The notes under the pieces: model-generated
What the model saw: the letters and a program-made list of their open reading frames with translations, nothing else
Databases searched by the model: none
What the model was told of the DNA's origin: nothing
Origin: Eledone cirrhosa
Lineage: Eukaryota
Assembly (NCBI GenBank): GCA_964016885.1
Contig: OZ024742.1
Coordinates: 271,622,001 to 271,686,000 of the forward strand
Length of the DNA: 64,000 nucleotides
Direction: 5' to 3'
In this document: positions 5,426 through 53,192 of the stretch, one piece after another
Layout of the letters: the number at the start of each line of letters is the position of its first letter
Numbering within the stretch: the stretch's first letter is position 1
Position numbers and translations under genes: made by a program

Positions 5426-8340
5426 TGGTGTCGGAGGAAGAAGAAGAAGGAAAGCGACCAGAACCAACTGGACGAAAGAATTGAATAGAACTGTTATGCA
5501 ATGTTACCTGAAGAGTAACCCCAAGGAGAAAGGCTATAGGAAACGGATGCATAACATTTGGAACGAGATTGGTCTATTTAAATTAGATGAACAAAAATTG
5601 GCCGGGCAGGCTCGGGTAATAAGAACTAATGGGTGGATAAGCGAGCTGGAACTGGAGGAACTGAGCAGAGAGATTAGCTTTGAAATGGAGGGTGGAGCGT
5701 CCAAGGCAAACGAGCCAGTGGGAAATGAAGGTGAAGAGGTCGAGAGAACGGAGGAACCATCCGAAGCAGACAATGATCTGAATGATGAAATAAATAATAC
5801 CTGGAACAGAGATACGGCCACTGAGGAGATGAATGCTGACGGGCTATGACAAGATTTGGTTGATATCCTAAACTTAGTGATAGATGAATTGAACAATGAT
5901 AGTGGGAAACCTATGAACATAATATTTGTAGACAGGAAAAAGTTAAAAGAAACAACAGCTAAGGTAAACAAAGTCATCCCATACCTTGAGGCGATGAGCC
6001 TTCACCAATGCAACAATATCCTCAAAGCAACAGCAAATACGATGAGGAAATTACTTGGTATAAAAGCGAGAGGAAACAACAAACAAAACAGATCACAAAA
6101 AAGGATCACAAAAAAGGCCAAAAAACTAACCAACTCGAGATCACGAGGCCCAGACGGTGTGCAGAGGTATTGGATTAAAAATATAACATCCCTCCACCCG
6201 AAACTGACAACCATGTTCAATGACTGCTTGATGTCAGGTGAGGTACCAGAGCGGTTGACAAAAGGTACCACCGTTCTGGTAATGAAAGACCGAATCAAGG
6301 GTAATGATGTTACCAACTATAGACCTATCACATGTCTGCCCGTAATGTGGAAACTGTTGACAAGCATTGTGTCTGAGGAAATCTACCATCATCTCCACAC
6401 AAACAACTTGTTACCGGACGAACAAAAAGGATGCCGAAAGAAGTCCGTGCTACAAAGGACCAGTTACTTATTGATAAGATGGTAATGAGGAATTGCAAGA
6501 GGAGACACACTGGTCTTGCCATGGGATGGATAAACTACAAAAAGGCATTTGACATGGTGCCTCATTCTTGGATCACCAAAGGCCTGGGATCTTCAGGGTG
6601 GCAGATAACATCAGACAGTTGTTGGGGAAAAGTATGAAGTCCAGGGAAACAGAGTTACCATCAGCTGGAGAATCATTGGGAAGCGTGAAGATCAAGAGAG
6701 GTATCTTCCAGGGAGATAGTCTGTCCCCTCTGTTGTTTGTCCTTGCCCTGATGCCCCTGACCAGTGTACTGCGAAAAGTGAGAGCAGGATACAGGTTAGG
6801 AAAGGGAGGGCTTACGATCAATCACCTCCTCTTCATGGACGATCTTAAGCTCTTCGGGAAAAGTGAGAAGGATTTAGATGTGCTTGTTGACACAGTCCGT
6901 ATTTTCAGCAATGATATATGTATGCAATTTGGTATTAGTAAGTGTGGATTCTTTGTAATGAGGAGGGGTAAATTGAGCAGAAATAACGGAATCCAGATAC
7001 CAACAGGTGAGATGATAAAGGAAATTGACACTGAAGAAGGATACAAGTATTTGGGTGTTCTGCAGGCTGATGACATCAAGACAATAAAAAAATGAAGGAA
7101 TTGATAAGAACTGAATACATTCGGAGAGTAAGGAGCGTGTTAAAGTCACATCTGAACAGTAGGAATGCCATGCGTGCAGTAAATTCCCGAGCTGTGTCTT
7201 TTATTAGATACATTGCGGGAATTCTGAGATGGAATGTTGCTGAACAAAAAGAAATGGATAGGAAGACTAGGAAGCTATTGACTATCTACAACATGTTCCA
7301 CAAGAGGAGTGATGTCGATAGATTCTACTTAAGGAGATCTGAAGGTTGAAGAGGTCTTATCAGCATAGAGGACTGTGTTCAGATGGAGAAAAACAACCTA
7401 CACAAATACGTGACTGATAGTAAGGAGCCAATGCTCACAGCTGTACTGAAGGAGAGGACAATGGACCAGGGGATGTCCAAGGAGGAAATAACATCAAGAA
7501 GAAAGAGCAGCCTTCAGAAAAAATCCATTCATAGTACCTTCTTTGAGAAAACTGAAATTTAGAGATCCACAGACATGGAACTGGTTGAAAAGAGGAGACC
7601 TTAAAAAGGCTACAGAATGAATGTTAATGGCTGCGCAAGAGCAGGCCCTCAAAACGAAGTGGTTGAAACACCATATTTACAAGGAGGAATCTAGCCCACT
7701 GTTCAGGATCTGTGGAGAGAGAGAGGAGACTGTGGCTCACATTGTATCCGAGTGTAAACAACTAGCCCCGACTCACTATAAGGGATGGAGACATGATGTG
7801 ATGGGCAGGGTGATCCACTGGCACCTATGCAAAGTAAACAATTTGTCACATTCTGAGAGTGGTTTGAGCATAAGCCAGAGTCGGTGATAGAAAACGATCA
7901 GGTGAAGGTGCTGTGGGATTTTAGGATACAGACGGACTAGAAACTGGAACACAATAGACCTGACATGGTGGTTGTGGACAAAGAAAAAAGATCTTGCCAG
8001 ATTGTGGATGTGGCCTGCCCATTCGACACGAGAGTGCAAGAGAAGGAGAGGGAGAAAATTAACCGATACCAGGATTAAAGTGGGAGGTAAAAAGGATTTG
8101 GAACTGCCATGAAGTCAAAGTCGTCCCGATTGTAATAGGCGCACTAGGTACTATCTCAAAATGTTCCCAGGGATGGTGAAAGAAAATTGGCCCCTTCACG
8201 CATTTTGGAACGCTTCAAAAGGCATGCTTGCTGGGAACAGCAAGAACCCTCCCATACGTCCTGAATATCTGAGGCTGCAGGTAGTGGCTTGATATTCATT
8301 TCGACAAACTTTCCAGTTAACTAACATCAATGACTGAGAC
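5426..8340 (+). mobile_element. R4/Dong-clade non-LTR retrotransposon, family D1, copy a (5'-truncated, decayed)
   Basis: RT motifs YRPITCL, KKAFD, GIFQGDSLSP, FMDD; knuckle remnant RICGEREETVAHIVSEC; RHD; RLE RPD...VDVACP; 3' UTR ...CATCAATGACTGAGAC then A-run and (TAA)n. Multiple stops and frameshifts. Confidence 0.9.
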
Positions 8341-8370
8341 TAAAAAAAAAAAAAAAATAATAATAATAAT

Positions 8371-11300
8371 GTTTTGTTTTCTTTATTAACCCCAAGGGTT
8401 TACATAAAATAGACATTAAGGACAGTACAGGACAATACAGGACGGAACAAATGGGCATTTCTGCGTGTAAAAAAACAGAGGATGTAATAAAAAAATAACA
8501 ATGAAAAATTCCCCAATAGGGGGGAGACTTCCTAGGGACATTTGTGGAGAATGCCTATTAAAAGGCCAAAGTGACCCTGACCAGCAGGGCAAGTGCCCTC
8601 TCCAAGTTTTCCACCTTTAATTTACGGACACATTCTCAGAGTAGGCCCATTCACACGGGCCATACTTGCCTCTCACACCCATCTTTCAACAAAATGCTGG
8701 GAAGAGAGCACTTCCCTCTCTACCCTGATATTCCTTTTCAAATGAAATTTGAAAAAGTTAATCAGGGAATCACCGAAGAGGTAAGTGCTCGTCTTCAGCC
8801 CTTTCAAACGTGTAAACCATACTATCTCTTTCGCAAAGGCCACCAGACAGATAAAAACTCCCTGCCCTTCCCGGCTAAAAGAAGAGGGCGGGGCAATCCT
8901 CACAATGGTCTCGGCTGCTAGCTGGATCCGTCCTACACGTGACAGCTGGTGTTCGACATAAACCCACAAGTCAGCAATGCTCGGACACTGGACGAGTGCG
9001 TGCAGGACGGTTTCGTGGCCCTGCTCGCATCTCGGACATGCTCGGCTGACGGCACCTCCAGGCCTGTAGAGTCTATCCCGAACTGGCAAGGCTCCTCGGT
9101 AGCACTGCCAGGCCAGGGATTTCTGGAAGTTGTCCATAGGCCCCGGCCCGAAAGTCCTTCCGAAGAGATTGGATCGTTGATTTTCGTCAACGCCTAGAGT
9201 TTCTCCAAGTACGTCGTCGCTCTTTCCCTCCACTAATCCTATATAGAACGCCAAGGTGGAGTTTCCACCAATCATTTGCCCGATTGGTCGAGGGCTGTGA
9301 GCGCCTTAAGGCATTCCAGTCTCCAATCGCTCCCTCTCGGTCTTCGCACTGCAGCTCTGTCACGGAGACGAGCTGGGGAAAGACGTGTCTAGCAAACGGC
9401 GACCACACCTGATCACCGTCGAGGAAAAGATGGAGATGTCGTAGCCTGAGCGCGTGCCTGCGCATCATCAGCCACGGCATGCCCATCCGTCCACGTAGCG
9501 GTTGTTGACAACAGATGGACCGCCAGACCATCGGAGCGCGTCCTTTCCACAAAAAGCGAAAGAGCAAACGCTCCAGCGCAGTCAGGCGAGGCTTAGGACA
9601 AGGTACGACGGTCAGGTGGTAGCAGTTGACAGAGGCGATGTACGCGTTAGCCACCTCCGCTCGACGTTTCAGGGATAGCTTCCTCTCCGCCTATTTCTGG
9701 GTGAGAGAAGCCACCCTTCTCGACACTTCGTCCCAGTTTTTGACCGTCTGGAGGTCCGGACCGAACCAGACACCTAGCAATTTAACCGGTCCGTCCGTCC
9801 AGCGTACGACGACGCTGTTGGACGGCATGGACCTGCCTCTCCAGGTGCCGAGCTGCAGGCCCACTGACTTTTCCTGGTTGATCATTTCTCCTGTCACCGC
9901 TATTCTCTTAGTGTAGTGCCGATCGCCTCGATTTTTTTGGCGTTCGACACCACTACGGCGACATCGTCCGCATATGCTCACACGGATCTTCCGCATCCTA
10001 GTTCGCGCGGGAAGCCCCTCAACGTCTCCAGTTTGTGCAGTAATTACTCGAGAGTCAATACGTAAAAGAGGGACGAGAGGGGACATCCTTGGCGGACCGA
10101 GCGCATGATGTTGAACGGTTCCGAAAGGTGCCCGTTCACTCTCACCACAGAGCAGATGTCGCTGTGCATGGCAACGATCCAGCCTCTGAAGAAGTGCCCA
10201 AAGCCAGCCGCCCTCAGGACTGCCGCCAGGTAACGATGGTCGACCCTATCGAAAGGTTTCGACTGATCTAAATTGATCAAATACCCACCCGTGCCAGGTT
10301 CCCTAGCTACCCTCTCTACGATGTATCGCATGAGGTGGAGGCTGTCGTGGATGGATCTGCCGGGAATGACGCATGTCTGCGCCTCTCCCACCAGACCACC
10401 AACGACAAGCGCCAACCTCTTTGCTAGCACCTTGGCCAAAATCTTGAACTCTGTGTTTAGCAGAGTTATGGGCCTAAAATTATCTATGTTATCCCCCTTG
10501 TTCGGATCCTTTCTCAGCAGTGCCACCGCTCCTAGGCTCACAGAGCTGGGAATTCTCCCGTTCTGTTGCCAGTTGCAGTAGACGTCCGCCAAAAGGCCTC
10601 GGAACAAGTCTGGCATCTGTACGTAAAGTTCATAGGGCAGACCATCCAAACCAGGCGATTTACCCCTTGTGCAGCTATTGTGCAGCTAATCATTTCCCCC
10701 CGTACTTCAGCGGCTGTTATCGGCTTTTCGCAACACTCCGCCTCAGTGGCCAAGAGCCGCGGCATTCCGTCGAGTTAGACACTAAAGTCCATCCCTCGAC
10801 CCGGCCCGCCGCTTCCCCCGAACAGCTGAGCGAAGTGTCGCTGAAAAGCTTCACACATTTGCCCGGGATCGAGTAGCATGCGCCCGTCGTGGTCCACCAA
10901 ATACGGAGGTCGTGGCTTTGTTGCCACGACGCGCCTCCGCCAATCGGGCCCATTGAACGGCTTTCGTCCCCTCGTGTCTGAGAGCACGCACCCTAGCTCT
11001 GAAACGCAGCCTTCGTGCTTTGCATTGAAGAATTGGTCAAATGCCAATTTCGCCGTAAGCATGTCGGTCGCGATGCCTCTGCTAAGCGCCTCGTCTAATT
11101 TTCCAACTAGTTCTCCCTCTGCTCTATTTTTCTCTATTGCTAAAGCCTTACTAAACCTAATGGATTCTATTCTAGTCGCTCTTTTCAGAGCAAACCACCA
11201 CTTGTTGTTGACGATGGCCCCCGTCAACGCCCGCTTAACTAGTTCGCTAATCCGGTATCTGTAGGCCTTGCGCGCTGGTAAGGACGCGTTTGGCTTCCAG

Positions 11301-13017
11301 TAGCCGGGTCCTCGTCTATGAAGCCTATCTAAGTCAAGCACACATATCACGAATTTGTGGTCCGTGTAGCTGATAATCTTGAATTGTGGACAGCCTATGC
11401 TAGACCTATCTATTTCCCTACAAAATACTCTATCTAGATATGATCTGGATGACCCTATACGATTTGTCCAAGTCCACATTGGCACATTCGGGAAATCCAA
11501 TCGGTACCTGTCAGACATTTCAAAACGCCTGAGCAGGTTGGTGAGGCTCTTGCACCCTCCATCCCTATCCGCTAATCCCACACAGTCCCAGCTTGCATCT
11601 AAGATCCCGTTCCAGTCGCCCACTAACACTAAAGAGCGGGACGTTCCAAGCAGGGTCTCCAGACGCCGGAAGAAATCAGGCCGCCCTGCTCCTGTAGGGG
11701 CATAGACGGCCACTAGCCTGAACGCTTGCCCGTCTCCGCTGGTCACGTCCAGCACCACCAACTTACCCTCTGGGTCCAGGAAGATGGCCCGTATGGCGAG
11801 ATCGAAACCTCTCCGAAAAAGCACAGCAACTCCCCCCACCCCCCGATCCCGGACGGCTGGGAGATGCGTACACTTCGTAGCCGCCGAAGATCGGTGCGAA
11901 GGCCCGTGCTTCGGAGATTCTGGTCTCGCTGATGGCCACTACATCTATGTTTAGTGACCAGAGGTCGTTGAGCAGGTGACCCTGTTTCCATGACGACCCC
12001 AAGCCATGCGCATTTATGCTGCCTATTCTGAGTGAGGTCATGTTTAAAATAGACCCTAAGGCTTTTTGTATTTGAGCCTCTGTGGCTCTTTCAACCCTAC
12101 GGCATTTTGTGCTTACTGTACGGTACGTAACCGTACAGTGCTGTTGGGTTTCGAAAAATGCTTCGGCTGCCTTGCAGATTGCTCGGTGTCCGGTTTTCGT
12201 CACCATCTTCTTCGCTTCCTCTAATTCCTCATTTGTTATGAGGATGGTTTCCAGGTTCTTTGCGATACCTGCAAACGTGATTGGTTTTTCTTTGCTGCTG
12301 TTGTTGTTTTGTTGTTGTCGTCAGAGCTGCTGTTACTGTTGTTGTTGCTGCAGGTACTACGACTACTGCCGCCGCCGCTGTTGCTGTGGTTGTTGTTGTT
12401 GTTGCTGCTGCTGCTGCTGTTGTTGTTGTTGTTGCTGCTAATGCTGTTGTTGTTTATGTTGCTGCTGATGCTGTTGCGGCTGCTACTGTTGTTCTCCTTG
12501 TCACTGTTGCTGCTGCTGCTGTTATTACGGCTGCTTGTGCTATTATTCATGACGTCAGACGAATGAAATGTGTTTTCGTATTTCCCGCACACCTTTTACG
12601 TCGTTGTCGTTGTCGTCGTCGTCGTGGAGAAATGTTACACGCTTTGTACGTGATTTTTCTTTACTGGCGTCGCTTGCGAAAGAGAAGGGAGGGAGAGAGA
12701 CACATTTAGAGAGAGACAATCTTCTCTCTGTTGTAGTGACGATTGAGGACGAAGAAGACGGAATGAGTGGGAGTGACCTATGAAAATTCTTTTTCGTAGC
12801 CATGTTTGTTTTTGTTTAAAATAAATATTGGGCACAAAACACCAATAAGCGGTTATTTAACCCCGAAGAGCCAAATAACGGGCAGAAAGACCCCTCTCAC
12901 GAGGAGGAGGGTGTTTTTGTCTACAATTTGGTTAAAGTTTTAAACAATTTACAATTGTTATAGCGGTCAAAATTTACAATACCTTACAGAGCCGAGCCTC
13001 CGTCAACCATAGCATTC
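8371..13017 (-). mobile_element. Tx1-type (L1 group) LINE, copy B1: both ends present, most of ORF1 deleted
   Basis: APE motifs IGSINAHGL, ISETR, VGDWNG, YLDRVF, TDHK, GPGYWK; RT motifs FRPITLLN, RQGCPLS, YADD; C-terminal CPRC..ETVLHALVQC; AATAAA at the 3' end; (AAT)n on both sides. Confidence 0.92.
12290..12535. repeat. Mixed (GTT/GCT)n trinucleotide tract within Tx1 ORF1 (Thr/Ala-rich linker on the minus strand)
   Basis: Direct reading; the other Tx1 ORF1 copies have similar Thr-rich tracts. Confidence 0.85.

Positions 13018-13059
<42 letters not shown>
13018..13059. repeat. (AAT)14 between two head-to-tail Tx1 copies
   Basis: Perfect repeat abutting the B1 5' end and the B2 3' end. Confidence 0.97.
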
Positions 13060-13060
<1 letters not shown>

Positions 13061-16000
13061 TTTTCTTTATTAACCACAAGGGTTTACATAAAGTAGACAT
13101 TAAGGACAGTACAGGACAATACAGGACGGTACAAATGGGCATTTCTGCGTGTAAACAAAAACAGAGGTTGAAATAAAATAACAAAGAAAAATTCCCCAAT
13201 AGGGGGGAGACTTCCGAGGGACATTTGTGGAGAAAGCCCATTAAAAGGCCACAGTGGCCCTGACCAACAGGGCAAGTGCCCTCTCCCAGTTTTCCACCTT
13301 TAATTTACAGACACATACTCAGAGAAGGCCCATTCATTCGGGCCATACTTGCTTCTCTCACCCATCTTTCAACAAAATGCTGGGAAGAGAGCACTTCCCT
13401 CTCTACCCTGATTTTCCTTTTCAAATGAAATTTGAAAAAGTTAATCAGGGCATCACCGAAGAGGTAAGTGCTCGTCTTCAGCTCCTTCAAACGTGTCCAC
13501 CATACTATCTCTTTCGCCATGGCCACCAGACAGATAAAAACTGCCTGCCCTTCCCGGCTAAAGGAAGGGGGCGGGGCAATCCTCACGATTTACTCAGCTG
13601 ATAGCTGGATCCATCCTACACGTGACAGCAGGTGTTCGACATAAACACACAGGTCAGCAATGCTCGGACACTGGACGAGTGCGTGCAGGACGGTTTCGTC
13701 GCCCTGCTCGCATCTCGGACATGCCCGGCTGACGGCACCTCCATGCCTGTAGAGTTTATCCCGAACTGGCAAAGCTCCTCGGTAGCACTGCCAGGCCAGG
13801 GATTTCTGGAAGTTGTCCATGGGCCCCGGCACGAAAGTCCTTCCGAAGAAATTGGCTAGTTGATTTTCGTCGACGCATAGAGTTTCTCCAAGTACGTCAT
13901 CGCTCTTCCCCTCCACTAATCCCCTATAGAACGCCAAGGTGGATTTTCCACCGATCACATTGCCAGATTGGCCGAGGGCTGTGAGCGCCTGAAGACATTC
14001 CAGTCTCCAAGCGCTCCCTCTCGGTCTTCGCTTGACCCAGGACTGCAGCTCCGTCAAGGAGACGAGCTGGAGAAAAACGTGTGTAGCAAACGGCGACCAC
14101 ACCTGATCACCGTCGAGGAAGAGGTGGAGATGTCGTAGCCTGAGCGCGTGTCTGCGCATCATCAGCCACGGCATGCCCAGCCCTCCACGTAGCGGGTGTT
14201 GACAGCAGATGGACCGCCTGACCATCGGAGCGCGTCCCTTCCACAAGAAGTGAAAGAGCAAACGCTCCAGCGCAGTCAGGCGGGGCTTAGGACAAGGTAC
14301 GACGGTCAGGCGGTAGTAGATGACGGATGCGATGTACGCATTCGCCACCTCCGCTCGACCTTTCAGGGATAGCTTCCTCTCGGCCCATTTCTGGGTGAGA
14401 GAAGCCACCCTGCTCGTCACCTCGTCCCAGTTTGTGTCCGTCTGGAGGTCTTGACCGAACCAGACCCCTAGCAATTTAACCGGTCCGTCCGTCCAGCGCC
14501 CGACGACGCTGTTGGACGGCATGGTCCTGCCTCTCCAGGTGCCGAGCTGCAGGCCCACTGACTTTTCCTGGTTGATCATTGCTCCTGTCACCGCTTCGTA
14601 TTCTCTTAGTGTAGTGCCGATCGCCTCGATGTGTTTGGCGTTCGACACCACTACGGTGACATCGTCGGCATATGCTGAAACGGATCTTCCGCTTCCTCGT
14701 TCGCGCGGGACGCCCCTCAACGTCTCCAGTTTGTGCAGTAATGGCTCGAGAGTCAATACGTACAATAGGGACGAGAGGGGACATCCTTGGCGGACCGAGC
14801 GCATGATGTTGAACGGTTCCGAAAGGTGACCGTTCACTCTCACTACAGAGGGGACGAAGCCCCTCAACGTCTCCAGTTTGTGCAGTAATTGCTCTAAATT
14901 GATCAAAGACCCACCCGTGCCAGGTTCCTAACTACCCTCTCTACGATGTATCGCATGAGGTAGAGGTTGTCGTGGATGGATCTGTCGGGAATGGCGCATG
15001 TTTGCGCCTCTCCCACCAGACCACCATCGACAAGCGCCAACCTCTTTGCTAGCACCTTGGCCAAAATCTTGAACTCTATGTTTAGCAGAGTTATGGGCCT
15101 AAGATTATCTATGTTATCCCCCTTGTTCGGATCCTTTCTCAGCAGCGCCACCGCTCCTCGGCTCACAGAGCTGGGAATTCTCCCGTTCTGTTGCCAGTTG
15201 CAGTAGACGTCCGCCAAGAGGCCTCCGAACAAGTTTGGCATTTGTACGTAAAGTTCATAGGGCAGACCATCCAAACCAGGCGATTTACCCCTTGTGCAAC
15301 TAGTCATTGCATCCCGTACTTCAGCGGTTGTTATCAGCTTTTCGCAACACTCCGCCTCAGTGGCCGAAAGCCGCGGCAGTCCGTCGAGGTAGACACTAAA
15401 GTCCATCCCTTGATCCGGCCCGCCACTGGCCCCGAGCAGTTGAGAGAAGTGTCGCTGAAAAGCTTCACACATTTGCCCGGGCCGAGTATCATGCGCCCGT
15501 CGTGGTCCACCAAAGACCGGATCGTGACTTTGTTGCCACGACGCGCCTCCGCCACTCGGGCCCATTGAACGGCTTTTGTCCCCTCGTGTCTGAGAGCACG
15601 CACCCTAGCTCTGACAACGCAGCCTTCGTGATTTGCATTGAAGAATTGGTCAAGGGCCAATTTCGCCGCAATACGTCGGTCGCGATGCCTTTGCTAAGCG
15701 CCTCATCTAATTCTCTAACTAATTCTCCCTCTGTTCTATTTTTCTCTATTGCTAAAGTCTTACTAAACCTAATGGACTCTATTCTAATTGCTCTTTTCAG
15801 AGCAAACCACCACTTGTTGTTGACGATGGCCCCCGTCAACGCCCGCTTAAATAGTTCGCTAATCCGGTCTCTGTAGGCCTTGCGCGCTGGTAAGGACGCG
15901 TTTAGCTTCCAGTAGCCGGGTCCTCGTCTATGAAGCCTATCTAAGTCAAGCACACAGATCACGAATTTGTGGTCCGTGTAGCTGACTATCTTGAATTGTG

Positions 16001-18769: not shown

Positions 18770-18822
<53 letters not shown>
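18770..18822. repeat. (AAT)17 between the 5' end of Tx1 B2 and the 5' end of a Dong copy
   Basis: Perfect repeat at a head-to-head junction. Confidence 0.97.
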
Positions 18823-18823
<1 letters not shown>

Positions 18824-21495: not shown

Positions 21496-21510
21496 TAATA
21501 ATAATAATAA

Positions 21511-22715: not shown

Positions 22716-22737
22716 TAATAATAATAATAATAATAAT

Positions 22738-23141
22738 GATTTCTTTATTGGCCACAAGGGCTGACATCTATAAAAACATGACAGACGGCACAGGACGGTA
22801 CATACTGTACGATGTGGGTTTTGTGCGTGTAAATATTTTTATTATTTATATAAGAAAAGAAAAAAATGACATAGAAACATATATATATAAACAATAAATA
22901 TGAAAATTGAAACAATGAAAAATTCCACAATGAGGGGGAAACCTCCGAGGGTTACTCGTGGCGAAAACCACACAAAAGACCACGGCCACCCTGACCACCA
23001 GGGCAAGCGCCCTCTCTCAATGTTTATATTTCTCAAACTACACACGTATATTCAGAGCGTTCCCGTTCACTCGGACCATTCTCGCTACATTCACCCATTT
23101 TTCAACAAACTTGCTAGAAGGCAGCACTTGCCTCTTCACCC
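22738..23141 (-). mobile_element. Tx1 3'-end fragment (C subfamily)
   Basis: Reverse complement closely matches ~28690-29076; 3' end abuts the (TAA)n tail of D2b. Confidence 0.88.
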
Positions 23142-23203
23142 GGCGTGTAAAAAACAAAAAAAAAAACAGAGTATGTAATAAAAATAATAATAATAATAAT
23201 AAT

Positions 23204-23298
23204 TGTTTCTACTTTTGGTACAAGGCCAGCAATTATCCAGTACATTACTGGTACTTTATGTTATCGACCCCGTAAGGATGAAAGGCAAATGTAACCTT
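23204..23298 (-). mobile_element. 5'-truncated SINE
   Basis: Reverse complement of the SINE core and 3' end, abutting (AAT)n at 23183-23203. Confidence 0.85.
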
Positions 23299-23313
23299 AA
23301 CGTTAATAATAAT

Positions 23314-23485
23314 GCTTTCTTTATTAACCACAAGGGTTTACACAAAGTAAAACTTTAAGGACAATACTGGACAATAGGTACAATACAGGTCGGTACAAAT
23401 GGGCATTTCTGCGTGTAAAAAAAACAAAAAAAACAAAAAACAGGGGATGTAATAATAAAAGAAACAATGAAAAATTCCCCAATAG
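23314..23485 (-). mobile_element. Tx1 3'-UTR fragment (B subfamily)
   Basis: Matches 13060-13202; preceded by short (AAT)n. Confidence 0.85.
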
Positions 23486-24736
23486 TTTACGGTAAACACA
23501 GAAATTGATACAACAAAACCATTACAAACAACGTGAACAAAATTAGCAAGGACAACAACACTAAGAACACTAATTAAAAATAATATAACCAAACCCAACA
23601 ACAGTAACAGCGACAACCAAAATATAGACAACAGATAAAATGACAACAAAAGCAACAACGATATTAACACCAAGAAAAGAAATAGCGACAACACCAACAT
23701 CAACAATACTGATTGCACGGAGAACAACATCAACGGCGGCACCAAAAACACAACCAACTGCAACAGACATAACCGCATCAACAACAAGACCAGTAGCAGC
23801 AGTAGTGGCGACAACAAAGATGCCATCAACAAAGGGACCATCTCTTTTGCAAAAGTGGCTCGTAGCAACAGTCCTGGTCAAGAGGAGGAGCTGGTGGTCG
23901 CATGACACATGGTAACCAGAATGAGTTTCCAGTGTCCTTGAAACCACCAACCGACTTCCCAGTGGAACAAGAGCGATGCACAGTGCCATACCGCACAATT
24001 GCCATGAAATCGTGTCGTGTAGAGAGAGCCACGGAGGCCCAAATTCAGAAGACCTTGGGAACTCTGTGGACACATAAAACCCACATCACCCGAGTCAATT
24101 AGTATGCTACCATGGACGTCCTTTTTTCTACCACCCAGGAAGAAGAATCGTACTCACTGAGGGCCCTACGGTGAGATGACATAAAATTAGTCCCGTTTTA
24201 CTGTGGGAAGAAAATTGCAAGGCCAGAGTAAACCAGTTCCCGCCCTACGTACCCGTGCCTTGGGTGGTTCTGTCTGTTCTTGGGGGCATCGAGGATAGAA
24301 CAACCATTCTGCAAGTATAGAAGTTGGGGAGAGAGAACTGGTCCGGTATTGGAATGGAAATGCTCATCCAAACCGACAAGGACGGCATCAGCTCTATTCC
24401 TGATGTAATAGGCCTCGGGAATCACTCCCAACTTCTCATGTCTGTTGAAGGAAGGCGTCCAAATTGCTTCAACTGTGGATCGAAGTCTCACCTCCTGGCT
24501 TTCTGCCCACAGAAAATAACAAAGGTGAAGGTCCCCCTCCTTCCAATGCTGAAACCGCTGCCATCAGAAACAGAGCAGTCAGCAAAAATGTCGGGAGATT
24601 CTACAGAGAGTAGGTGGACAACGTCCGTTGCACCCACATCTAAGCCACGGACAACTAAAACAACGGCGGCAAATGCAGCAACAAAAACAGTTGCACTAGC
24701 TTCACCTGTGCCAAGAACGGCTGACCAGGCTCCACC

Positions 24737-24768
<32 letters not shown>

Positions 24769-27700
24769 CAACAACAACAAAAACAAATGAGAGGATAGAA
24801 CTCATACCCATCCCCGACCTCTCACAGTCAGACATGGAGGATGAGGCAGCTGAGGAGTGGAAAATGGTTGACAAAAAAACCCCGCAAAAACACCACAGCT
24901 TCGCCCTCCAAAGGCGAAGGCAGAGAAAGAGGTGAAAAGGCTGCAAGGGGAGATGCAGCAACACCACCATCATCACCATCACCACAACAAACATCACAAC
25001 CAACAACAACCACACCATCACCAGCATCAAGACATACACCTACATCGCAAACACAACAAAGCACACACCAAAGAGCAACAAGAAAAAAGCAACATTACCA
25101 CCACCACCACCACCCCAACCCCCACAAAAAAGAAAATAAATTACATAGCCATAAACATCGTACACAATGGATTTACGGAACTTATAAAGCTGCATACAGA
25201 CATGACAGACATAAATTCTCACACCCCATCAACACCAAGATCGTTACCAAACAATATTAACATTGTCGAAATTAAGCTCAAAGATTATAAACAGTTAAAA
25301 AAAAGGATCACTCTCCAAAATAATATACACATATATCATCTTGGCGACGCCCATTACCACCCGAAAGGACAGTTCTACTGTCCATTCCCCAGACGATCAA
25401 GGTAAGTGATCCTTTCTCACTTACCCCGCTCCTCACCCAACTTGGCCGTACTCAGAATAGGCAGTGTAAATGTACGTAGCCTGGGATCATCTTGGAAGCA
25501 GAGTCAACTGCTCAACGACCCCAGGTTAATCAACATAAATGTGGTGGCCATCAGCAAGACCAGAATGTCCGAAGCACGAGCCTTCGCACCGATCTTCGGC
25601 GACTACGATGTATACGCATCTCCCAGTAGTCCGGGATCGGGGCGAGGTGGTGCTGTGCTTTTTCGGAGAGTCTTGGATCTCACCATACGGGCGATCTTCC
25701 TGATTCCAGAAGGTAAGTCGGTGGTGATGGACGTTACCGACAGCGAAGGCAATGCTTTGAGTCTAGAAGCCCTCTAAGCCCCAACAGAGGCAGGACGGCC
25801 AGTTTTCTACCGACGTCTAGAGACCTTTCCTGGAACGTCCCGCTCTTTAGTGTTAGTGGACGACTGAAACGGTATCTTCGATGCACGCTAGGATTATGTG
25901 GGGGTAGTAGACAGGGAAGGAGGGTGTAATAGCCTCAACAATCTGCTCAAACTTTTGAACTGTCTGACAGGTATAGACTGGATTATCCGAATGTGCAAAT
26001 ATGTGCATGGGCAAACCGTATCGGGTCATTCAGATGTAATTGGATGGGGTATTCTGTAGGGAAACAGATAAGGCTAGTGTAGGCCTCCCACAACTTAAAT
26101 TAGTCGACTGCACGGACCAGAAATTGGTGATCTGTGAAGTTGACTTAGATAGACTTCATAGGCAAGGACCCGGCTACTGGAAGCTGAACGCATCGTTCCC
26201 GGCACGCAATGTTTACAGACACCAGATTACCGAATTAGTTAAGTGTGTGTTGACGGGTGCGATCGTCAACAACAGGTAGTGGTTTACCCTGAGAAGTTCT
26301 ATTAGATAGAATCGATAAGGTTTAGCAAACGAGTAGTGATAGAGGAAATTAGGTTAGAGAGAGAGAGAGAGAGCTAATTAGAAAACTAGAACAGGCGTCG
26401 CGACCGACATACTTGCGGCGTAATTGGCACTCGACCAATTTTTCAATGCAAAGCACGAAGGCTGCGTTGTCAGAGCTAGAGCACGTGCTCTAAGACATGG
26501 AGGACGAAAACCTTTCAATGGGCCCGGGTGGTGGAGGTGCCACATGGCAAATAATCTACAATTCGGTCGTTGCCTTATCAAAACGGACGCATGTTGCTCG
26601 AAGTCTAGCAGACGTGTGAGGCTTTTCAACAGCACTTTGCTCAATTGTTCAGGAGCGGTGGCGGGCCTGATCGGATTATAGGCTTCGTTGCATACCTCGA
26701 CCGACAGCTGCGGCTCTCGACGGACTGCCGCGGCTCTAGATGACCGCAGTGCAGTGCTGCAAAAAACCGATGACAGCAGGTGAAATACGGGAAGCGTTGT
26801 GTAACTGCACGTGGGGTAAATCGCCAGGATGGTCGGCCCTACGAACTTTATGCGTACCTGCCATACTTGTTTGGCGACCTCTTGGCAGATGTCTACTGCA
26901 ACTGGCAGCAGAACGGTTCATACCCAGTTTTGTGAGACGGGGAACGGTAGCGCTGCCGGGAAAAAAACCCGAACAAGGGGGACGTTATAGACAACTTCAG
27001 GTCCATAACTCTGCTAAACGCAGACTTTAAGATTTTGGCCAAGGTGTTAGCATATAGATCGGCGCTTGTCGTCGGTGATCTGGTGGGTGAGGCGCATACA
27101 TGCACCATTCCGGACAGATCCATCCATGACAATCTCCATCACATACGATACATGATAGAGAGGGTTGTTAAGGAATCTGGCACGGGTGGGGCCCTGATAA
27201 ACTTGGATCAATCTAAAGCATTTCATAGTGTCGACCATCGGTACATGGCTGCGGTGCTCAAGGAGGCCGGCTTCGGGTCCGTTTTTAGGGGCTGGATCGC
27301 TGCGATGCAGAGCGATATCTGCTAGATTGTAAGGGTGAATGGTCACCTATCGCAGCCTTACAGCATCATGCGCTCGGTCCACCAGGGTGTACCCCTCTCG
27401 TCCCTCTTGTACTTACTGGCCCTTGAGCCGTTAGTGCACACATTGGAGACGATGAGGGGTGTCCCACGTGAACTGGGATGCGGGAGATCATTATCACCTT
27501 ACGCCAGCGAAGTCACAGTAGTGGTGTCGTGCACCAAACACGTCCAGATTCTCGGCACCGATCTCAAGGAATACGAAGCGGTAACAGGAGTAAATATAAA
27601 CCTGGAAAAGTCGGTGGGCTTGCAACTCAGCACGTGGAGAGGCATGCACATGCCGTCCGACAGCATCGTGGGGCGCTGGACGGAAGGACCGGTTAAATGT

Positions 27701-29076
27701 TTCGGTCCTGATCTGCAGATGGAGAAAAACAGGAGCGAGGTGATGCGCAGGGTGGCATCTCTCACCCAGAAATGGGCCGAGAGCAGGCTGTCTGTGAAAG
27801 GTCGAGTGGAGGTGGCGAATGCTTACATCGCGTCCGTCATATGAAACCGCCTGACTGTCGTACCTTGCCCCCACCCATCTGGAGCCTTCTCTTACGCTTT
27901 TTGTGGAAGGGATGTGCTCTTATGGTCAGACGATCCATTTGCTGTCAACACCCGTTGCGTGGAGGAATAGGCATGCCGTGGCTGATGATGCGCAAGCATG
28001 CGCTGAGGCTGCGACATCTCTGGTGCTTCCTTGACGGTGAACAGTAGTGGTCGCCGTTTTCCAAACGCGCTTTTCCCTAGGTCGTCTCCTTGAAGGAGCT
28101 GCCGTCCTGGATCAGTAATAGCGAGGAATAGCGCTTGGAAGCTGGAATGTCTCCCAGCGCTCACCGCCCTCTACCAGCTGGGCACTAGTATCGGTGGAAC
28201 ATCCATCTCGCCGTTCTATAGAGACCTAGTTTGAGGGAAACAGCGACGACGTTCTCGAGGAGACCCTGGGCGTGGAAACCGATCAGTTGTTCGCTCTCTT
28301 CAAGAAAACTTTCAGACCGGGGCCTATGGATGACTTCAACACATCCCTGGCCTGGCCTGGCAGTGCTACTGGGGAGTGTTGCCGGTTCGGGATAAGCTCT
28401 ACAGGCACGGATGTACTGTCAATCGAGTCTGTCCGAGATACAAGCAGGGCGCCGAAACCATCCTTCACGCACTCGTTCAGTGCCCGAGGATTGCTGATTT
28501 GTGGAGCTATGTTGAACAGTGGGCATCCTCCTTTAATGAGGAGGAAGGGAATGCAGTTTTCATCGGCCTGGTGGCCATGGTGAAAGAGATTGTGTGATGG
28601 AAAGGTTGAAAGGGTTAAAGGCGGACACTTTCCTCTTCGGCGAATCCCTGATTAACTTTTTCAAGTTTCACTTGAAGAGGAAAATCAGGGTGGAGAGGCA
28701 AGTGCTGTCTTCTAGCAAGTTTGTTGAAAGGTGGGTGAATGTAGTGAGAATGGTCCGAGTGAACGGGAGTGCTCTGAATATACGCCTGTAGTTTGAGAAA
28801 TGGAAAAATTGAGAGAGGGCGCTTGCCCTGTTGGTCAAGGTGGCCGTAATCTTTTGTGTGGATTTCGCCACGAGTAACCCTCGGAATTTTCCCCCGTATT
28901 CGGTAATTTTTCATTGCTTGAATTTTCATTTTATTTTTTACAAATATATATGTTTCTATGTCTTTTTTCTTTTTCGTTTCTTATATGAATAATAAAAATC
29001 TTTACACGCACATGACCCACATCATACCGTCCTGTGCCGTCTGTAATGATGTCAGCCCTTGTGGTCAATAAAGAAA
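23486..29076 (+). mobile_element. Tx1-type LINE, copy C (older, near full length)
   Basis: ORF1 YRTIAMKSCRVERATE and knuckle CFNCGSKSHLLAFC; ORF2 LRIGSVN (~25450), GPGYWKLN, LINLDQSKAF, degenerate YASE at the YADD position, CPRY..ETILHALVQC; AATAAA then (ATT)n. Confidence 0.9.
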
Positions 29077-29105
29077 TAATAATTATTTTTATTATTATTA
29101 TTATT

Positions 29106-30184
29106 GTTCTTTGAGTCTCAGTCATTGATGTTATTTAACTGGAGAGTTTGTTGAAATGAATATCAAGCAGCTACCTGGAGCCTCAGATATTCAGGACGTA
29201 TCGGAGAGTTCTTGCTGTTCCCAGCAAGCATGCCTTTTGAAGTGTTCCAAAAAGCGGGGCGGGACTAACATTCTTTAACTATCCTTGGAATTACTTTGTG
29301 ATAGTACCTAGAGCGCCTATGACAATCGAGACGACTTTGACTTCATGGCAGTTCCAAATCCTTTTTACCTCCTCCACTTTAAGTCTGGTATCGGTTAATT
29401 TTCTCCCTCTCCTTTTCATTCACTCTCGTGTCAAATGGACAGACTACATCTACAATCAGGCACGATCTTCTTTCCTTGTCCAAAACCACCAGGTCAGGTC
29501 TATTGTTTTCCAGTTTCTTATCGGTCTGTATCCTTTAATCCCATGGCACCTTCACCTGATCGTTTTCTATCACCGACTCTGCCTTATACTCATACCACTT
29601 CTCAGAATGTGGTAAATTGTTTACTTTGCATAGGGGACAGTGGATCACCCTGCCCATCACATCATGTCTCCAGTCTTTATAGTGAGTCTGGGCTAGGTAT
29701 TTACACTCGGATACAATGTGAGCCACAGTCTCCCTCTCTTTCTCCACATATCCTACACAGAGGGCTAGCCTCCTCCTTGTAAACTTCGTTTTGAGTGCCT
29801 GCTTTTGCGCAGCCATTAGCATTCCTTCTGTAGCTTTTTAAGGTCTCCTCTTTTTAACCAGTTCCATGTCTGTGGATCTCTAAATTCAGTTTTCTCAAAG
29901 AAGGTACTATGAAGGGATTGTTCATGAAGGTTGCTCATCCTCCGTGTTGTTATTTCCTCCTTGTACATCCACTGGTCTATTGTTCTCTCCTTCAGTACAA
30001 TTCTGAGCATTGGCTGCCTATTGTCGGTCACGTATTTGTTCAGGTTATTTTTCTCCATCTGAACACAATCTTCTATGCTGATAAGACCTCTTCCACCTTC
30101 AGATGTCTTTAAGCAGAGTCTATCGACATCACTCCTCTTGTGGAACTTGTTTATAGATTAGCAATAGCTTCCTCGTCTTCCTAT
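29106..30184 (-). mobile_element. R4/Dong family D1, copy b (3' 1.1 kb)
   Basis: Reverse complement matches ~7258-8340; (ATT)n on both sides. Confidence 0.9.
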
Positions 30185-30199
30185 TATTATGATTATTAT

Positions 30200-30300
30200 C
30201 CCGCTGAGGTTGACTTTGCCTTTCATCCTTACTGGGTCGATAACATATAGTACCAGTAATGCACTAGGTATTTGCTGGCCTTGTGCCTAAAGTAGAAACA
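30200..30300 (+). mobile_element. 5'-truncated SINE inside an (ATT)n spacer
   Basis: SINE core and 3' end GGCCTTGTGCCTAAAGTAGAAACA followed by (ATT)n. Confidence 0.88.
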
Positions 30301-30321
30301 ATTATGATTATTATTATTATT

Positions 30322-32270
30322 GTTTTTGAGTCTCAGTCATTGATGTTATTTAACAGGAAAGTTTGTTGAAATGAGTATCAAGCCACTACCTGCAGTCTCA
30401 GATATTCAGGACGTATCGGACTGTCCTTGCTGTTCCCAGCAAGCATGCCTTTTGAAGTGTTCCAAAAAGCGGGGCGGGACCAATTTTCTTTCACCATCCT
30501 TGGAAACTGTTTTAGATAGTACCTAGTGCGCCTATGTCATCCTGGACGACTTTGACTTCATGGTTGTTCCAAATCCTTTTTACCTCCTCCACTTTAAGTC
30601 CTGGTATCGGTTAATTTTCCCCATCTCCTTTTCATGCACTCTTGTGTCGACAACGGCAGGCTACATCCAAAATCAGGCACGATTGTCCAAAACCACAAGG
30701 TCAGGTCTATTGTGTTCCAGTTTCTTGTCCGTCTGTATTTGTGCAGGTTATTTTTCATCATCTGAACACAGTCTTCTATGCTGATAAGACCTCTTCCTCC
30801 TTCAGATCTCCTTAAGTAGAGTCTATCGACATCACTCCCCTTTTGGAACATGTTGTAGATAGTCAATAGCCTCCTAGTCTTCCTATCCATTTCTTTTTGT
30901 TCAGCAACATTCCATCTCAGATTTCCGCACTGTACCTAATAATAGACACAGCTCGGGAATTTACTGCACTTATGGCCTTCCTACTGTTCAGATGTGAATA
31001 TAATACGCTCCTTACTCTCCGAATGTATTAAGATCTTATCAATTCCTTCATGTGTTTTGTTGTTGATGTCATCAGCCTCCAGAACACCTAAATATGTGTA
31101 TCCCCCTTCAGTATAAATTTCCTTTATCATCTCACCTGTTGGTACCTGGATTCCGTTGATTCTGCTCAATTTAACCCTCTTCATCACAAGGACTACGCAC
31201 TTACTAATACCAAATTGCATGCATATATCATTGCTGAAAATACAGACAGTGTCAACAAGCACATCCAAATCCTTCTCACTCTTCCCGAAGAGCTGAAGAT
31301 GGTCCATGAAGAGGAGGTGATTGTTGGTAAGCTCTCCCTTTCCCAACTTGTATCCTGCTCTCACTTTTCGCAGTATAATGGTCAGGGGGATCAGGGCAAG
31401 GACAAACAACAGAAGGGACAAACTATCTCCCTGGAAGAAACCTCTCTTGATCTTCACGCCAACCAAATATTCCCCGCCCGATGATAACTCTGTTTTCCAG
31501 GACTTCATACATTTGATCAACAACTGTCTGATGTTATCTGCCACCCTGAAGATCTCTAGGCTTTTGGTTATCCAAGAATGTCGAATGCCTTTTTGTAGTC
31601 TATCCATCCCATGGCAAGTCTAGTGTGTCTCCTCCTGCAATTCCTCATTATCATCTTATCAATAAGTAATTGGTCTTTTGTACCACGGGACTTCTTTTGG
31701 CATCCGTTCTGTTCGTGCGGTAACATGTTTATGTGGAGGTGATGGTAGATTTCCTCAGACACAATGCTTGTTAACAATTTCCACATTACGGACAGGCATG
31801 TGATAAGTCTATAATTGGTACCATCATTACCCTTGGTTCGGTCTTTCATTATCAGAACTGTGGTACCTTTTATCAACCACTCTGGTACCTCATCTGACAT
31901 CAAGCAGTCATTGAACATGGTTTTCAGTTTCAGGTGGAGGGATTTTATATTTTTAATCCAATACCCCAGCCCACCATCTGGGCCTGGTGATTTCCAGTTG
32001 GTTAGTTTTCTGGCCTGCCCCTTAAGAATTTCAACTGTGATACTCAACTCATTTTGTTGGTGTGCCTGTTCACTAATCTCCTTTTGAACTGTCTCTATCC
32101 ACACTGCCTGATCGTTATGTTCAACATCCTGCTCCCATATTCCTCTCCAGAATGTCTTAGTTTGTTCCGCCTCAGGGATCAATTCGTTGCCTCTTTCTTT
32201 CCCTTCAAGCTGTCCAAACAACATCTTCTGGTTGTTGTCAAACATACGGTTCTGTCTATACTGACATACT
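30322..32270 (-). mobile_element. R4/Dong family D1, copy c (5'-truncated, internal deletion at ~30738)
   Basis: ORFs 31568-32245 and 30981-31607 (KSPGPDG, YRLITCL, QGDSLS, FMDH); D1 3' UTR; (ATT)n flanks. Confidence 0.9.
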
Positions 32271-32302
32271 TTATTATTATTATTATTATTGTTATTGTTA
32301 TT

Positions 32303-33346
32303 CCTTGAATCTCAGTCATTGATGTTGGTTAACTGGAAAGTCCGTTGGATTGAATATCAAGCCACTACCTGCAGCCTCAGATATTCAGGACGTATCGGAG
32401 GGTTCTTGCTGTTCCAAGCAAGCATGCCTTTTGAAGCGTTCCAAAAAGCGTGAAGGGGCCGATTTTCTTTAACCATCCCTGGAAACCTTTGGAGATAGTC
32501 CCCAGTGCGCCTATGACAATCGGGATCACTTTGACTTCATGGCAGTTCCAAATCCTTTTCACCTCCCACTTTAGGTCCTGGTATCGGTTAATTTTCTCCC
32601 TCTCCTTCTCTTGCACTCTCGTGTCGAACGGGCAGGCCACATCCACAATCAGGCACGATCTTTTTTCTTTGTCCACAACCACCAGGTCAGGTCTATTGTG
32701 TTCCAGTTTTTTGTCCGTCTGTATCCTAAAATCCCACAGCACCTTCACCTGACTGTTCTCCATCACCCCCTCTGGCCTATGCTCATACCATTTCTCAGAA
32801 TGTGGTAGATTGTTTACTTTGCACAGGTGCCAGTGGATCACCCTGCCCATCACATCGTGTCTCCAGCCCTTATAGTGGGTCTGGGCTAGGTGTTTACACT
32901 CGGACACAATGTGAGCCACAGTCTCCTCTCTCTCTCCACAGATCCTGCACAGTGGGCTAGCTTCCTCCTTGTAGATATGGTGTTTCAACCACTTCGTTTT
33001 GAGGGCCTGCTCCTGCGCAGCCATTAGCATTCCTTCTGTAGCCTTTTTGAGGTCTCCTCTTCTCAACCAGTTCCATGTCTGTGGATCTCTAAATTCAGTT
33101 TTCTCAAAGAAGGTACTATGAAGGGATTTTCCCTTAAGGCTGCTCTTCCTCCTTGATGTTATTTCCTCCTTGGACATCCCCTGGCCTACTGTCCCCTCCT
33201 TCAGTACAGTTCTGAGCATTGGCTCCTTACTATAGGTCACGTATTTGTATAGGTTGTTTTTCTCCATCTGAACACAGTCCTCTATGCTGATAAGACCTCT
33301 TCCACCCTTAGATCTCCTTAGGTAGAGTCTATCGACATCACTCCTC

Positions 33347-33347
<1 letters not shown>
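32303..33347 (-). mobile_element. R4/Dong family D1, copy d (3' 1.05 kb, open frame, probably the youngest D1 copy)
   Basis: Uninterrupted 296-aa ORF 32377-33267 with CRIC..ETVAHIVSEC, RHD, NRPD..IVDVACP..KINRYQDL; 5' end abuts (ATT)18. Confidence 0.95.

Positions 33348-33401
<54 letters not shown>
33348..33401. repeat. (ATT)18 at the right edge of the nest
   Basis: Perfect repeat. Confidence 0.97.
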
Positions 33402-53058: not shown

Positions 53059-53192
53059 GGCAATGTAGGTAAATCCTATCGGCAATGTAGGTAAATCCTA
53101 TCGCCAATGTAGGTAAATCCTATCGGTAATGTAGGTAAATCCTACCGGCAATGTAGGTAAATCCTATCGGCAATGTAGGTAAATCCTATCGG
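53059..53192. repeat. 6 x 22-bp tandem repeat CAATGTAGGTAAATCCTATCGG overlapping the PBS
   Basis: Units start at 53061, 53083, 53105, 53127, 53149 and 53171; three single-base variants. Confidence 0.97.

Follow-up and report, generated by a model that had tools for sequence, protein, structure and literature searches.

Antiparallel arrays of Dong-like and Tx1-like retrotransposons at (AAT/ATT)n repeats in the genome of Eledone cirrhosa

Retroelements of unrelated families crowd one segment of the Eledone cirrhosa genome, and the trinucleotide repeat between them raises the question of whether it is merely a by-product of their tails or a target that they share. The segment lies in a 64,000-nt window, the whole stretch of DNA analysed here (GCA_964016885.1, contig OZ024742.1, 271,622,001-271,686,000, forward strand). 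An earlier note had described about 13 insertions there, in a nest organized around a single microsatellite. BLAST against natural reference copies mapped 13 non-LTR insertions in the nest (5426-33400), which consists of two Dong-like RLE families (DongA and DongC), APE-encoding Tx1-like LINEs and one 185-bp SINE. An ARAGORN scan of the window for tRNAs returned 0 genes.

The left part of the nest carries spacers that read AAT on the plus strand. It opens with a DongA copy (5426-8341, plus) that has RT, CCHC and PD-D-K type motifs, an internal deletion and frameshifts, and whose 5' edge adjoins a PIF1 helicase fragment at 5425 without any repeat. An A-run and (AAT)5 (8342-8370, the run itself at 8356-8370) separate it tail to tail from a Tx1-like LINE of head type b (8371-13017, minus) with a full 5' end, a ~1.3-kb internal deletion and APE, RT and zf-RVT domains. 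An (AAT)14 spacer (13018-13059) leads to a second Tx1-like LINE, of head type a and near full length (13060-18769, minus), which stands head to head across (AAT)17 (18770-18820) with a 5'-truncated DongC (18821-21495, plus). This copy is 98% identical to a full-length one, marking a young family; beyond (TAA)5 (21496-21510) follows a second, shorter 5'-truncated DongC (21511-22715, plus), 95.7% identical to the first. A (TAA)7 spacer (22716-22736) joins it tail to tail to a type g Tx1-like 3' fragment (22737-23141, minus), directly abutted by a 40-bp scrap (23142-23182). The series then runs through (AAT)7 (23183-23203), the 3' half of a SINE (23204-23297, minus), (TAA)3 (23304-23312) and a last Tx1-like 3' fragment (23313-23485, minus).

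From 23486 onwards the spacers read ATT on the plus strand. An older, type g-like Tx1 LINE (23486-29074, plus), with a missing head and an ORF1 in which a CCHC-like knuckle was read by eye, meets a 5'-truncated DongA (29106-30184, minus) tail to tail across a degenerate (ATT)n spacer (29075-29105, with the run at 29089-29103). A short degenerate (ATT)n run (30182-30197, of which 30185-30197 is spacer), a 5'-truncated SINE (30198-30300, plus) and an (ATT)n spacer (30301-30321) precede a 5'-truncated DongA with an internal deletion near 30735 (30322-32265, minus). Next come an (ATT)n spacer with the GTT variants of the DongA tail (32271-32297, run 32271-32288), a further 5'-truncated DongA whose frame is open across the zinc knuckle and RLE motif (32298-33347, minus) and a terminal (TAT)18 run (33347-33400). 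A separate, older pair lies beyond the nest (55886-62450), where Tx1 (55886-59030, plus) is tail to tail with DongC (59044-62450, minus).

All twelve spacers that the earlier note had listed are present, as are its four tail-to-tail Dong/Tx1 junctions (8341-8370, 22716-22737, 29077-29105 and 59032-59043). Its statement that insertions are separated almost only by repeat holds at these spacers and fails at 5425, 23141/23142 and 23485/23486. At the last of these boundaries the polarity flips without a repeat; the nest is therefore two arrays placed back to back rather than elements sharing one microsatellite, and a deletion likely joined them. Repeat runs exceed chance: the 28-kb nest holds 10 of ≥15 nt, and 200 kb of control DNA, sampled at even spacing, holds 6 of ≥5 units, the two counts coming from slightly different regular expressions.

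The Dong copies encode an RT recognized by Pfam and no Exo_endo_phos domain, and CxxC-H-C and RPD...D...K motifs could be read from their translations, as could a Trp in the N-terminal segment. Searches against the PDB matched only R2 proteins, and a search of atlas clusters for a named R4 or Dong sequence gave unnamed matches; one copy (L085) has a single frameshift. Judged from its sequence features, namely RT, CCHC and RLE motif without APE, plus (TAA)n on the sense strand, the group is probably Dong-like. The other LINEs have two ORFs, with APE, RT and a C-terminal zinc motif in ORF2 (PF03372, PF00078 and PF13966), which is intact over 1139 aa in L031 and whose best PDB match is human L1 ORF2p (E 1.5e-52; R2, 1e-19). 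No named Tx1 reference was found among 35 homologues or in atlas clusters, and by their anatomy these LINEs probably belong to the Tx1 clade.

Genome-wide, the polarity of the repeat was fixed and opposite. Counting distinct junction sequences, window included, Dong ends adjoined AAT runs in 165 cases and ATT in 1, Tx1 ends adjoined ATT in 120, AAT in 1 and both in 2, and SINE ends adjoined ATT in 73, AAT in 4 and both in 1; background polarity in random DNA was 35:33 among 16,640 windows. Outside the window, 176 of 185 repeat-separated neighbour pairs obeyed the rule, and the 9 that broke it include some low-complexity hits. We counted 227 exact DongC/Tx1 tail-to-tail joints and 0 same-strand joints of a DongC tail to a Tx1a head, along with 22 parallel Tx1-Tx1 and 14 parallel SINE-Tx1 pairs. 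The elements also cluster: another member started ≤150 nt after the end of 23/30 DongA, 20/29 DongC and 20/35 ATT-tailed Tx1 copies, as against 133/3800 random positions. The DongA 3' end was located genome-wide by pattern search, a DNA search that skips common words having given no match.

The 5' junctions were enriched for the repeat as well. Full-length Tx1a heads followed (ATT)3, in phase, in 1570 of 1687 cases, and all five exceptions checked lie in degenerate ATT runs; 50 of 51 full-length Tx1 heads were preceded by sequence ending in ATTATT. This invariant phase could reflect an RNA that carries some upstream repeat. We rejected the idea that full-length elements bring repeats of their own to unique sites, since 0/41 full-length Tx1 copies have a target-site duplication (TSD) beyond the run (AT-only matches ignored). 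Among truncated Tx1 heads, 15/41 keep the repeat, against a background of ~0.2%, 25/41 are without it and 1/41 has it on the wrong strand; later deletions are a likely, though unproven, cause of the missing repeats. These counts skip internal boundaries (37 Tx1, 6 DongA and 5 DongC cases), and a raw count of 63 truncated Tx1 heads without repeat was dropped because it included them. Truncated Dong heads were preceded by AAT in 37/51 DongA and 23/26 DongC copies. The points of truncation are many and varied, yet AAT precedes them, which makes the repeat a Dong target and not a tail alone. Beyond the repeat run, no TSD was found in 53 truncated Dong copies; TSD lengths and nick sites of the LINEs are unreadable within the repeat, and two Tx1 fragments (L180 and L232) have short TSDs beginning ATTA. 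The DongA tail contains two AAC variants common to 19/30 copies and is thus RNA-templated. At Dong and Tx1 5' ends, HDV-like ribozymes gave no Rfam match and 0 hits with a strict descriptor, the true DongA 5' end lying beyond the reference used, and folding z-scores of -0.3 to 1.1 were not significant. Neither outcome that the earlier note would have taken as refutation, random orientation or 5' junctions not enriched for the repeat, was thus seen, and its proposal that an RLE class and an APE class share the repeat as a target is supported.

A sister Tx1 group serves as an internal control, since it lacks the (ATT)3 tail (0/20) and non-ATT-tailed Tx1 ends rarely have a neighbour from these families (5/25). 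Its tail is ATCT in 12/20 copies, and its target is likely (ATCT)n. Intact ORF2s of the ATT and ATCT groups are 68% identical, and the groups differ in tail as well as flank.

The SINE behaves differently from the microsatellite specialist that the earlier note had made of it, a candidate role that we rejected. It is present in at least 68,735 copies, and 26 of 31 copies in an unbiased sample have a TSD, only 1 of these 26 being pure ATT. Most copies sit at a short ATTATT motif: positions +1 to +6 match it in 28-33 of 35 sites per column, a pyrimidine stands at -1 in 26/35, and the median TSD is 15 bp (36 non-repeat TSDs). The score of its last 30 nt against Tx1f and Tx1g ends was reached by 3 and 11 of 2000 shuffles, compared with 1897 and 1916 for Dong ends. 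This short similarity does not name the partner family: it is weak for Tx1a and Tx1b (83 and 760 of 2000), and the ATCT sister scores just as well (1 of 2000). With target motif and orientation in common with Tx1, and TSDs present, the SINE is probably moved by Tx1 machinery. ARAGORN found no tRNA and L121 had no Rfam match; a likeness to the CORE domain and to pol III boxes makes the SINE a candidate member of the tRNA-derived CORE-SINE type. The arrays thus probably reflect two targeting systems, RLE Dong and APE Tx1, rather than three unrelated ones.

We consider it likely that antiparallel Dong/Tx1/SINE arrays at (AAT/ATT)n grow by opposite-strand priming and target renewal, a reading that builds on the directly observed polarity of each family, the clustering, the repeat flanking LINEs at both ends and the ~15-bp SINE TSDs starting ATTAT(T). 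From the geometry of TPRT, we infer that Dong and Tx1 nick opposite strands. Dong would prime reverse transcription on the T-rich strand, and Tx1 and its probable SINE passenger on the A-rich strand. The Tx1 endonuclease would nick 5'-AATAAT^R-3', an L1-like pyrimidine/purine step, and cut the second strand ~15 nt away. The LINE inserts almost only into runs and the SINE mostly at single motifs, from which new short ATT runs likely arise. Dong would need a longer run and likely enters these runs from the opposite strand, aided by a (TAA)-like RNA tail. Every insertion would be flanked on either side by repeat that could serve as the next target, and slippage would then lengthen the spacers. 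Such regeneration, claimed in the earlier note for every insertion, is borne out by TSDs for the SINE; for the LINEs, repeat on both sides points to it. Reads over 17800-21480, which derive from many copies, contained no empty-site allele, and the independent sequencing runs listed were RAD-seq only.

The polarity could instead arise from RNA-tail annealing, with loose nicking of AT-rich DNA and extension only where the 3' end of the nick pairs with a (UAA)n or (AUU)n tail. The RNA-templated DongA tail with its shared variants fits this account, as do a SINE (L142) with extra ATT solely on its 3' side and the divergence of the ATT group from the ATCT group in tail and in flank alike; tail-target annealing has also been proposed for SART1Bm, in the available text of PMC7265360. 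The pyrimidine bias at -1 of SINE sites, however, lies outside the annealed part, and the same text has the specificity of TRAS1 and SART1 moving with a swapped endonuclease domain. Annealing as the source of polarity is unlikely in our view, although it is compatible with opposite-strand priming and both may act together.

One-way parasitism, in which Tx1 and the SINE only end in (ATT)n with little preference and Dong alone targets the repeat, inserting antiparallel in their tails, is very improbable. It accommodates the majority of SINEs outside microsatellites, the 25/41 truncated Tx1 heads without repeat and the Dong-(TAA)n targeting already known (PMC7998251, as excerpted). For the Tx1 LINE it is largely refuted by the (ATT)3 before 1570/1687 Tx1a heads, the repeat at 15/41 truncated heads, the lack of TSDs outside the run (0/41) and the parallel Tx1-Tx1 and SINE-Tx1 pairs, which need no Dong. 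We give marginally less credence still to the view that the arrays stem not from repeated retrotransposition but from tandem duplication at the DNA level, from crossing-over between repeats that was unequal, or from faulty assembly. A tandem Tx1 pair (L233/L234) is 99.5% identical, versus 96.5% to another copy, and has a spacer variant in common, which suggests DNA-level duplication; L208/L209 are 99.2% identical versus 98.5-98.7%, and internal deletions are frequent. Against this, adjacent insertions in the window vary in family, in head type and in where they are truncated, same-family neighbours there are 86-96% identical, and in reads from another individual AAT-like runs precede positions internal to DongC (loose ends lie at 20146 and 20655). 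Such processes account for a minority of pairs at most.

Several parts of the reading based on opposite-strand priming are already known. TRAS1 and SART1 of Bombyx belong to the R1 clade and insert in opposite orientation within one repeat, but both are APE elements at telomeres, whereas here RLE and APE elements form mixed arrays at a dispersed microsatellite. Utopia (RLE) and Keno (Tx1 clade, APE) both reside in U2 snRNA genes, a low-copy target for which the text available describes no mixed arrays; their 3' flanks are identical and they thus share one orientation, unlike Dong and Tx1 here. Elements in the R4/Dong clade, found in Bombyx, ostracods, molluscs and cnidarians, combine RT with a C-terminal RLE and target (TAA)n, a target stated for Dong of most insects, molluscs and cnidarians in the excerpted text of PMC7998251. 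Bombyx Dong has the same polarity, its 5' junction primer containing sense-strand TAA repeats (PMC3774820, in part). In Eledone, by contrast, two divergent young families share runs with an opposite-oriented APE element. Rfam and a simple descriptor found no HDV-like ribozyme in the reference ends scanned. Microsatellite-specific Tx1 elements with an APE-RT-zf ORF2 include Kibi at (TC)n, Koshi at (TTC)n and crocodilian Tx1 at (TTCC)n/(TTTC)n; the targets named in the available portion of PMC4494074 are all pyrimidine-only, unlike (ATT)n and the likely (ATCT)n of the sister. The same portion presents crocodilian SINEU as inferred to move by Tx1, sharing the target of Tx1-Mar with weaker preference and inserting in tandem around the TSD. 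SINEU thus goes to a Mariner element; the SINE described here, with at least 68,735 copies, goes to a 6-bp motif or microsatellite. In the literature searched, some of it as excerpts, we found no description of a Tx1 specific for (ATT)n, of a sister associated with (ATCT)n or of antiparallel arrays that combine RLE and APE elements.

These results show that both endonuclease classes of non-LTR elements can share one dispersed microsatellite, in strictly opposite polarity, at thousands of loci. A broader picture, which we offer tentatively and hold to be somewhat doubtful, is a self-feeding community in which a Tx1-driven SINE makes ATT runs genome-wide, RLE and APE elements split the strands and regenerate each other's target, and sister Tx1s split ATT and ATCT through endonuclease changes. 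If such changes drove the split, the sisters offer a natural comparison from which APE specificity could be read. As their intact ORF2s are 68% identical, exchanging RNA tails or endonuclease loops between them can directly test how target and strand are determined, a question that also bears on targeted-insertion tools. Short-read insertion callers likely undercount elements that lie inside repeats and in one another's flanks, which may bear on the few non-reference Dong insertions reported in an octopus (PMC9115989, in the text available). For such a genome, antiparallel arrays offer a concrete cause for transposable-element hotspots and many (AAT)n runs.

Mapping by BLAST against single natural reference copies placed 13 insertions between 5426 and 33400, in keeping with the roughly 13 claimed in the earlier note: four copies of DongA and two of DongC (two Dong-like RLE non-LTR families), five pieces of Tx1-like APE LINEs, and two of a 185-bp SINE. 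The twelve AAT/ATT spacers listed there and the four tail-to-tail Dong/Tx1 junctions were all present in the window. The repeat was absent at three joints of the nest (the left edge at 5425, 23141/2, and 23485/6), and at 23485/6 the spacers change from AAT-on-plus to ATT-on-plus. Therefore, the nest consists of two opposite-polarity arrays placed back to back, and the idea of a single microsatellite shared by the whole nest was not borne out. A PIF1-like helicase fragment (4962-5425), possibly Helitron-derived, directly adjoins the first DongA copy. Elsewhere in the window lie a Gypsy-like LTR retroelement between SINE copies (48483-53487; terminal repeats of 281 bp, 92.9% identical; RT, RNase H, and integrase pieces on the minus strand), a tandem repeat with a 22-bp unit (53037-53212), and, amid AT-repeat-rich DNA, an inverted repeat of 144 bp, 94% complementary (43286-43752), possibly a miniature inverted-repeat element.

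Genome-wide searches covered the 3.0-Gb assembly, in which the window occupies positions 271622001-271686000 of contig C3. We sampled 39 best-hit loci for Tx1, 29 for DongC (20 of these extended upstream), and the first 30 pattern matches each for DongA, the SINE, and Tx1; an extended Tx1 sample comprised 60 of the first 100 pattern matches, read out to 7 kb. Pattern-match samples all came from the start of one contig (C1), control DNA was 20 evenly spaced 10-kb pieces, and no anchor was picked on the basis of its flank. Polarity was scored over distinct junction sequences adjoining a 9-nt run, window included, with identical flanks collapsed. Dong ends adjoined AAT at 165 junctions and ATT at 1, Tx1 ends ATT at 120 (AAT at 1, both at 2), and SINE ends ATT at 73 (AAT at 4, both at 1); control DNA held 35 ATT and 33 AAT among 16,640 windows. 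In 176 of 185 repeat-separated neighbor pairs outside the window, elements of the same kind lay parallel and Dong ran opposite to Tx1 or the SINE, upholding the fixed opposite polarity first noticed in the nest. Among them were Dong/Tx1 pairs in tail-to-tail (38) and head-to-head (23) arrangement, and some of the nine exceptions were low-complexity matches or polarity-flipping spacers. Exact DongC/Tx1 tail-to-tail joints numbered 227 genome-wide; a DongC tail joined to a same-strand Tx1a head was found nowhere in the genome, a configuration with fewer possible partners (1,687 heads). Clustering also held: another member began within 150 nt past the end of 23/30 DongA, 20/29 DongC, and 20/35 ATT-tailed Tx1 copies, compared with 133/3800 random positions.

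A repeat seen only on the 3' side might be no more than a tail, so it is the 5' ends that show whether the repeat is a target. These counts omit internal deletions (6 DongA, 5 DongC, and 37 Tx1). AAT preceded the truncated heads of 37/51 DongA and 23/26 DongC copies. For truncated Dong copies flanked by the repeat at either end (n = 53), the run on the 5' side measured 15 nt or more (median 45), and a target site duplication (TSD) reaching beyond it was never found. Full-length Tx1a heads had (ATT)3 directly upstream, in phase, in 1570 of 1687 cases; among the first 100, all five heads lacking it lay in degenerate ATT runs. None of 41 full-length Tx1 copies showed a TSD outside the run, AT-only matches being ignored. 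Truncated Tx1 heads followed ATT in 15/41 cases (12/25 short, 3/16 long), AAT in 1/41, and no repeat in 25/41. The expected enrichment at 5' junctions was found for Dong and full-length Tx1a and was weaker for truncated Tx1, where the background is about 0.2%. Several of the 25 repeat-less heads were fused head-to-head with a truncated Dong without a spacer, and such fusions (L012, L043, L062, L088, L104, L117, L119, and L216) look as if a later deletion had removed the two 5' ends together with the intervening repeat.

The SINE is an informative exception to microsatellite insertion. At unbiased loci, a TSD accompanied 26 of the 31 full-length copies, and (ATT)4 stood upstream of 2 of 31. Non-repeat TSDs (n = 36) measured 7-29 bp (median 15) and reached at least 10 bp in 33/36, versus 100/1260 mismatched pairs. 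From +1 the site is ATTATT (28-33/35 per column), and position -1 holds a pyrimidine in 26/35. The L1 consensus site carries a T-tract, and the SINE site is L1-like in geometry, with AATAAT in its place. Over its last 30 nt the SINE is similar to Tx1f/g ends and unlike Dong ends; the match to Tx1a/b is weak, and that to the ATCT-tailed Tx1 sister group is as good as to Tx1f/g. Because motif, strand, and tail are common to both, Tx1 is the likely mobilizer of the SINE. Two Tx1 fragments in unique DNA also had short TSDs starting ATTA. In a small sample of control-DNA runs of at least five units, 4/6 touched a SINE or Tx1, which fits seeding of Dong targets by these elements. Overall, the original observation stands and its interpretation holds in part: Dong/Tx1 polarity and clustering are supported, whereas the SINE as a microsatellite inserter is not, as only 1 of the 26 TSDs was pure ATT.

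The pattern that retrieved ATT-type Tx1 also picked up the sister group, in which (ATT)3 tails were found in 0/20 copies and ATCT tails in 12/20. The repeats beside these loci on C1 (L227, L240-L249, and L251-L259) are (ATCT)n or similar AT/CT repeats, with (ATCT)n upstream of several truncated copies (L241, L242, L256, L258, and L259) and TSDs of 16 bp (L253) and 19 bp (L245). In one ATCT-tailed copy (L246), ORF2 is intact and shares 68% identity with that of the ATT type. Therefore, the flanking repeat is family-specific and no general property of this AT-rich genome.

In both Dong families the RT precedes a CCHC knuckle and a motif of the PD-D-K type, an APE is absent, and DongC matched only R2 proteins in the PDB. 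The intact ORF2 of the Tx1-like LINE (1139 aa) combines APE, RT, and zf-RVT and is nearest to L1 ORF2p. As no named Tx1 or Dong reference was among the homologues or atlas matches returned, the clade labels are provisional, drawn from anatomy and target rather than from a tree. Related Tx1 ORF2s are joined to no fewer than four distinct 5' heads or ORF1 regions (window 8371-29074; L031, L055, L214, and L250); head types a and b differ over a near-identical ORF2 and 3' end, which suggests 5' module exchange. Both LINE classes are young: the 40 best DongC 3' ends are 99-100% and Tx1 3' ends 92-100% identical to the query. Exact-motif counts, as lower bounds, gave at least 2,989 DongA copies, 16,285 Tx1-like ends (sister group included), and 68,735 SINE copies. 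Within the long 5' region of full-length DongC, ~240 nt upstream of the ORF, lies a 53-bp piece with 81-83% identity to the SINE 3' end (L085, minus strand, ~1910-1960; also L076, L081, L083, L084, and L086). Ahead of full-length DongC heads there is often (AAT)n and then (AAG)n (L072, L073, L077, and L084), suggestive of a purine-rich 5' end expanding by slippage.

Each ingredient has precedent in the accessible portions of earlier reports: Dong targeting of (TAA)n, molluscs included (PMC7998251, PMC3774820); microsatellite targeting in the Tx1 clade and Tx1-driven SINEs (PMC4494074); opposite orientation of TRAS1 and SART1 within one repeat (PMC7265360); and convergence of RLE and APE elements on one site in Utopia and Keno (PMC4640811). 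The 2026 Octopus vulgaris annotation describes TE hotspots as well as Dong-R4 and L1-Tx1 families with recent activity, and 'target' or 'nested' is absent from its accessible part (PMC13282606). Neither an (ATT)n- or (ATCT)n-specific Tx1 nor mixed antiparallel Dong/Tx1 arrays were found in the literature searched. Earlier descriptions may exist outside it, for instance in Repbase or in supplements such as those of PMC4494074, which show Tx1 flanks; to judge from the searchable literature, neither the combination nor the two Tx1 targets seem to have been described.

DNA-level duplication may account for some tandem pairs, as the 99.5% identity of the L233/L234 pair would suggest, but neighbors in the window are unlike in family, head, and truncation point. 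A DongC copy elsewhere shows a 26-nt duplication (window 20439-20464) around a 14-nt TAA insert; reads came from three individuals (X4, X5, and X6) with one read start per run, possibly from a single locus, and it may be an insertion scar. Polarity, clustering, the repeat at both LINE ends, and the SINE TSDs are established. The DongA tail is identical in 19/30 copies, including two AAC variants, and is therefore RNA-templated. By target-primed reverse transcription, the priming nick would fall on the strand complementary to the element's sense strand: the T-rich one in the case of Dong, the A-rich one for both Tx1 and the SINE. This choice could be set by the endonuclease or by tail annealing, and the genome fits either. 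Each enzyme would finally have to cleave both strands. A second, staggered cut within the run would keep the repeat on both sides, so that every insertion would add a target.
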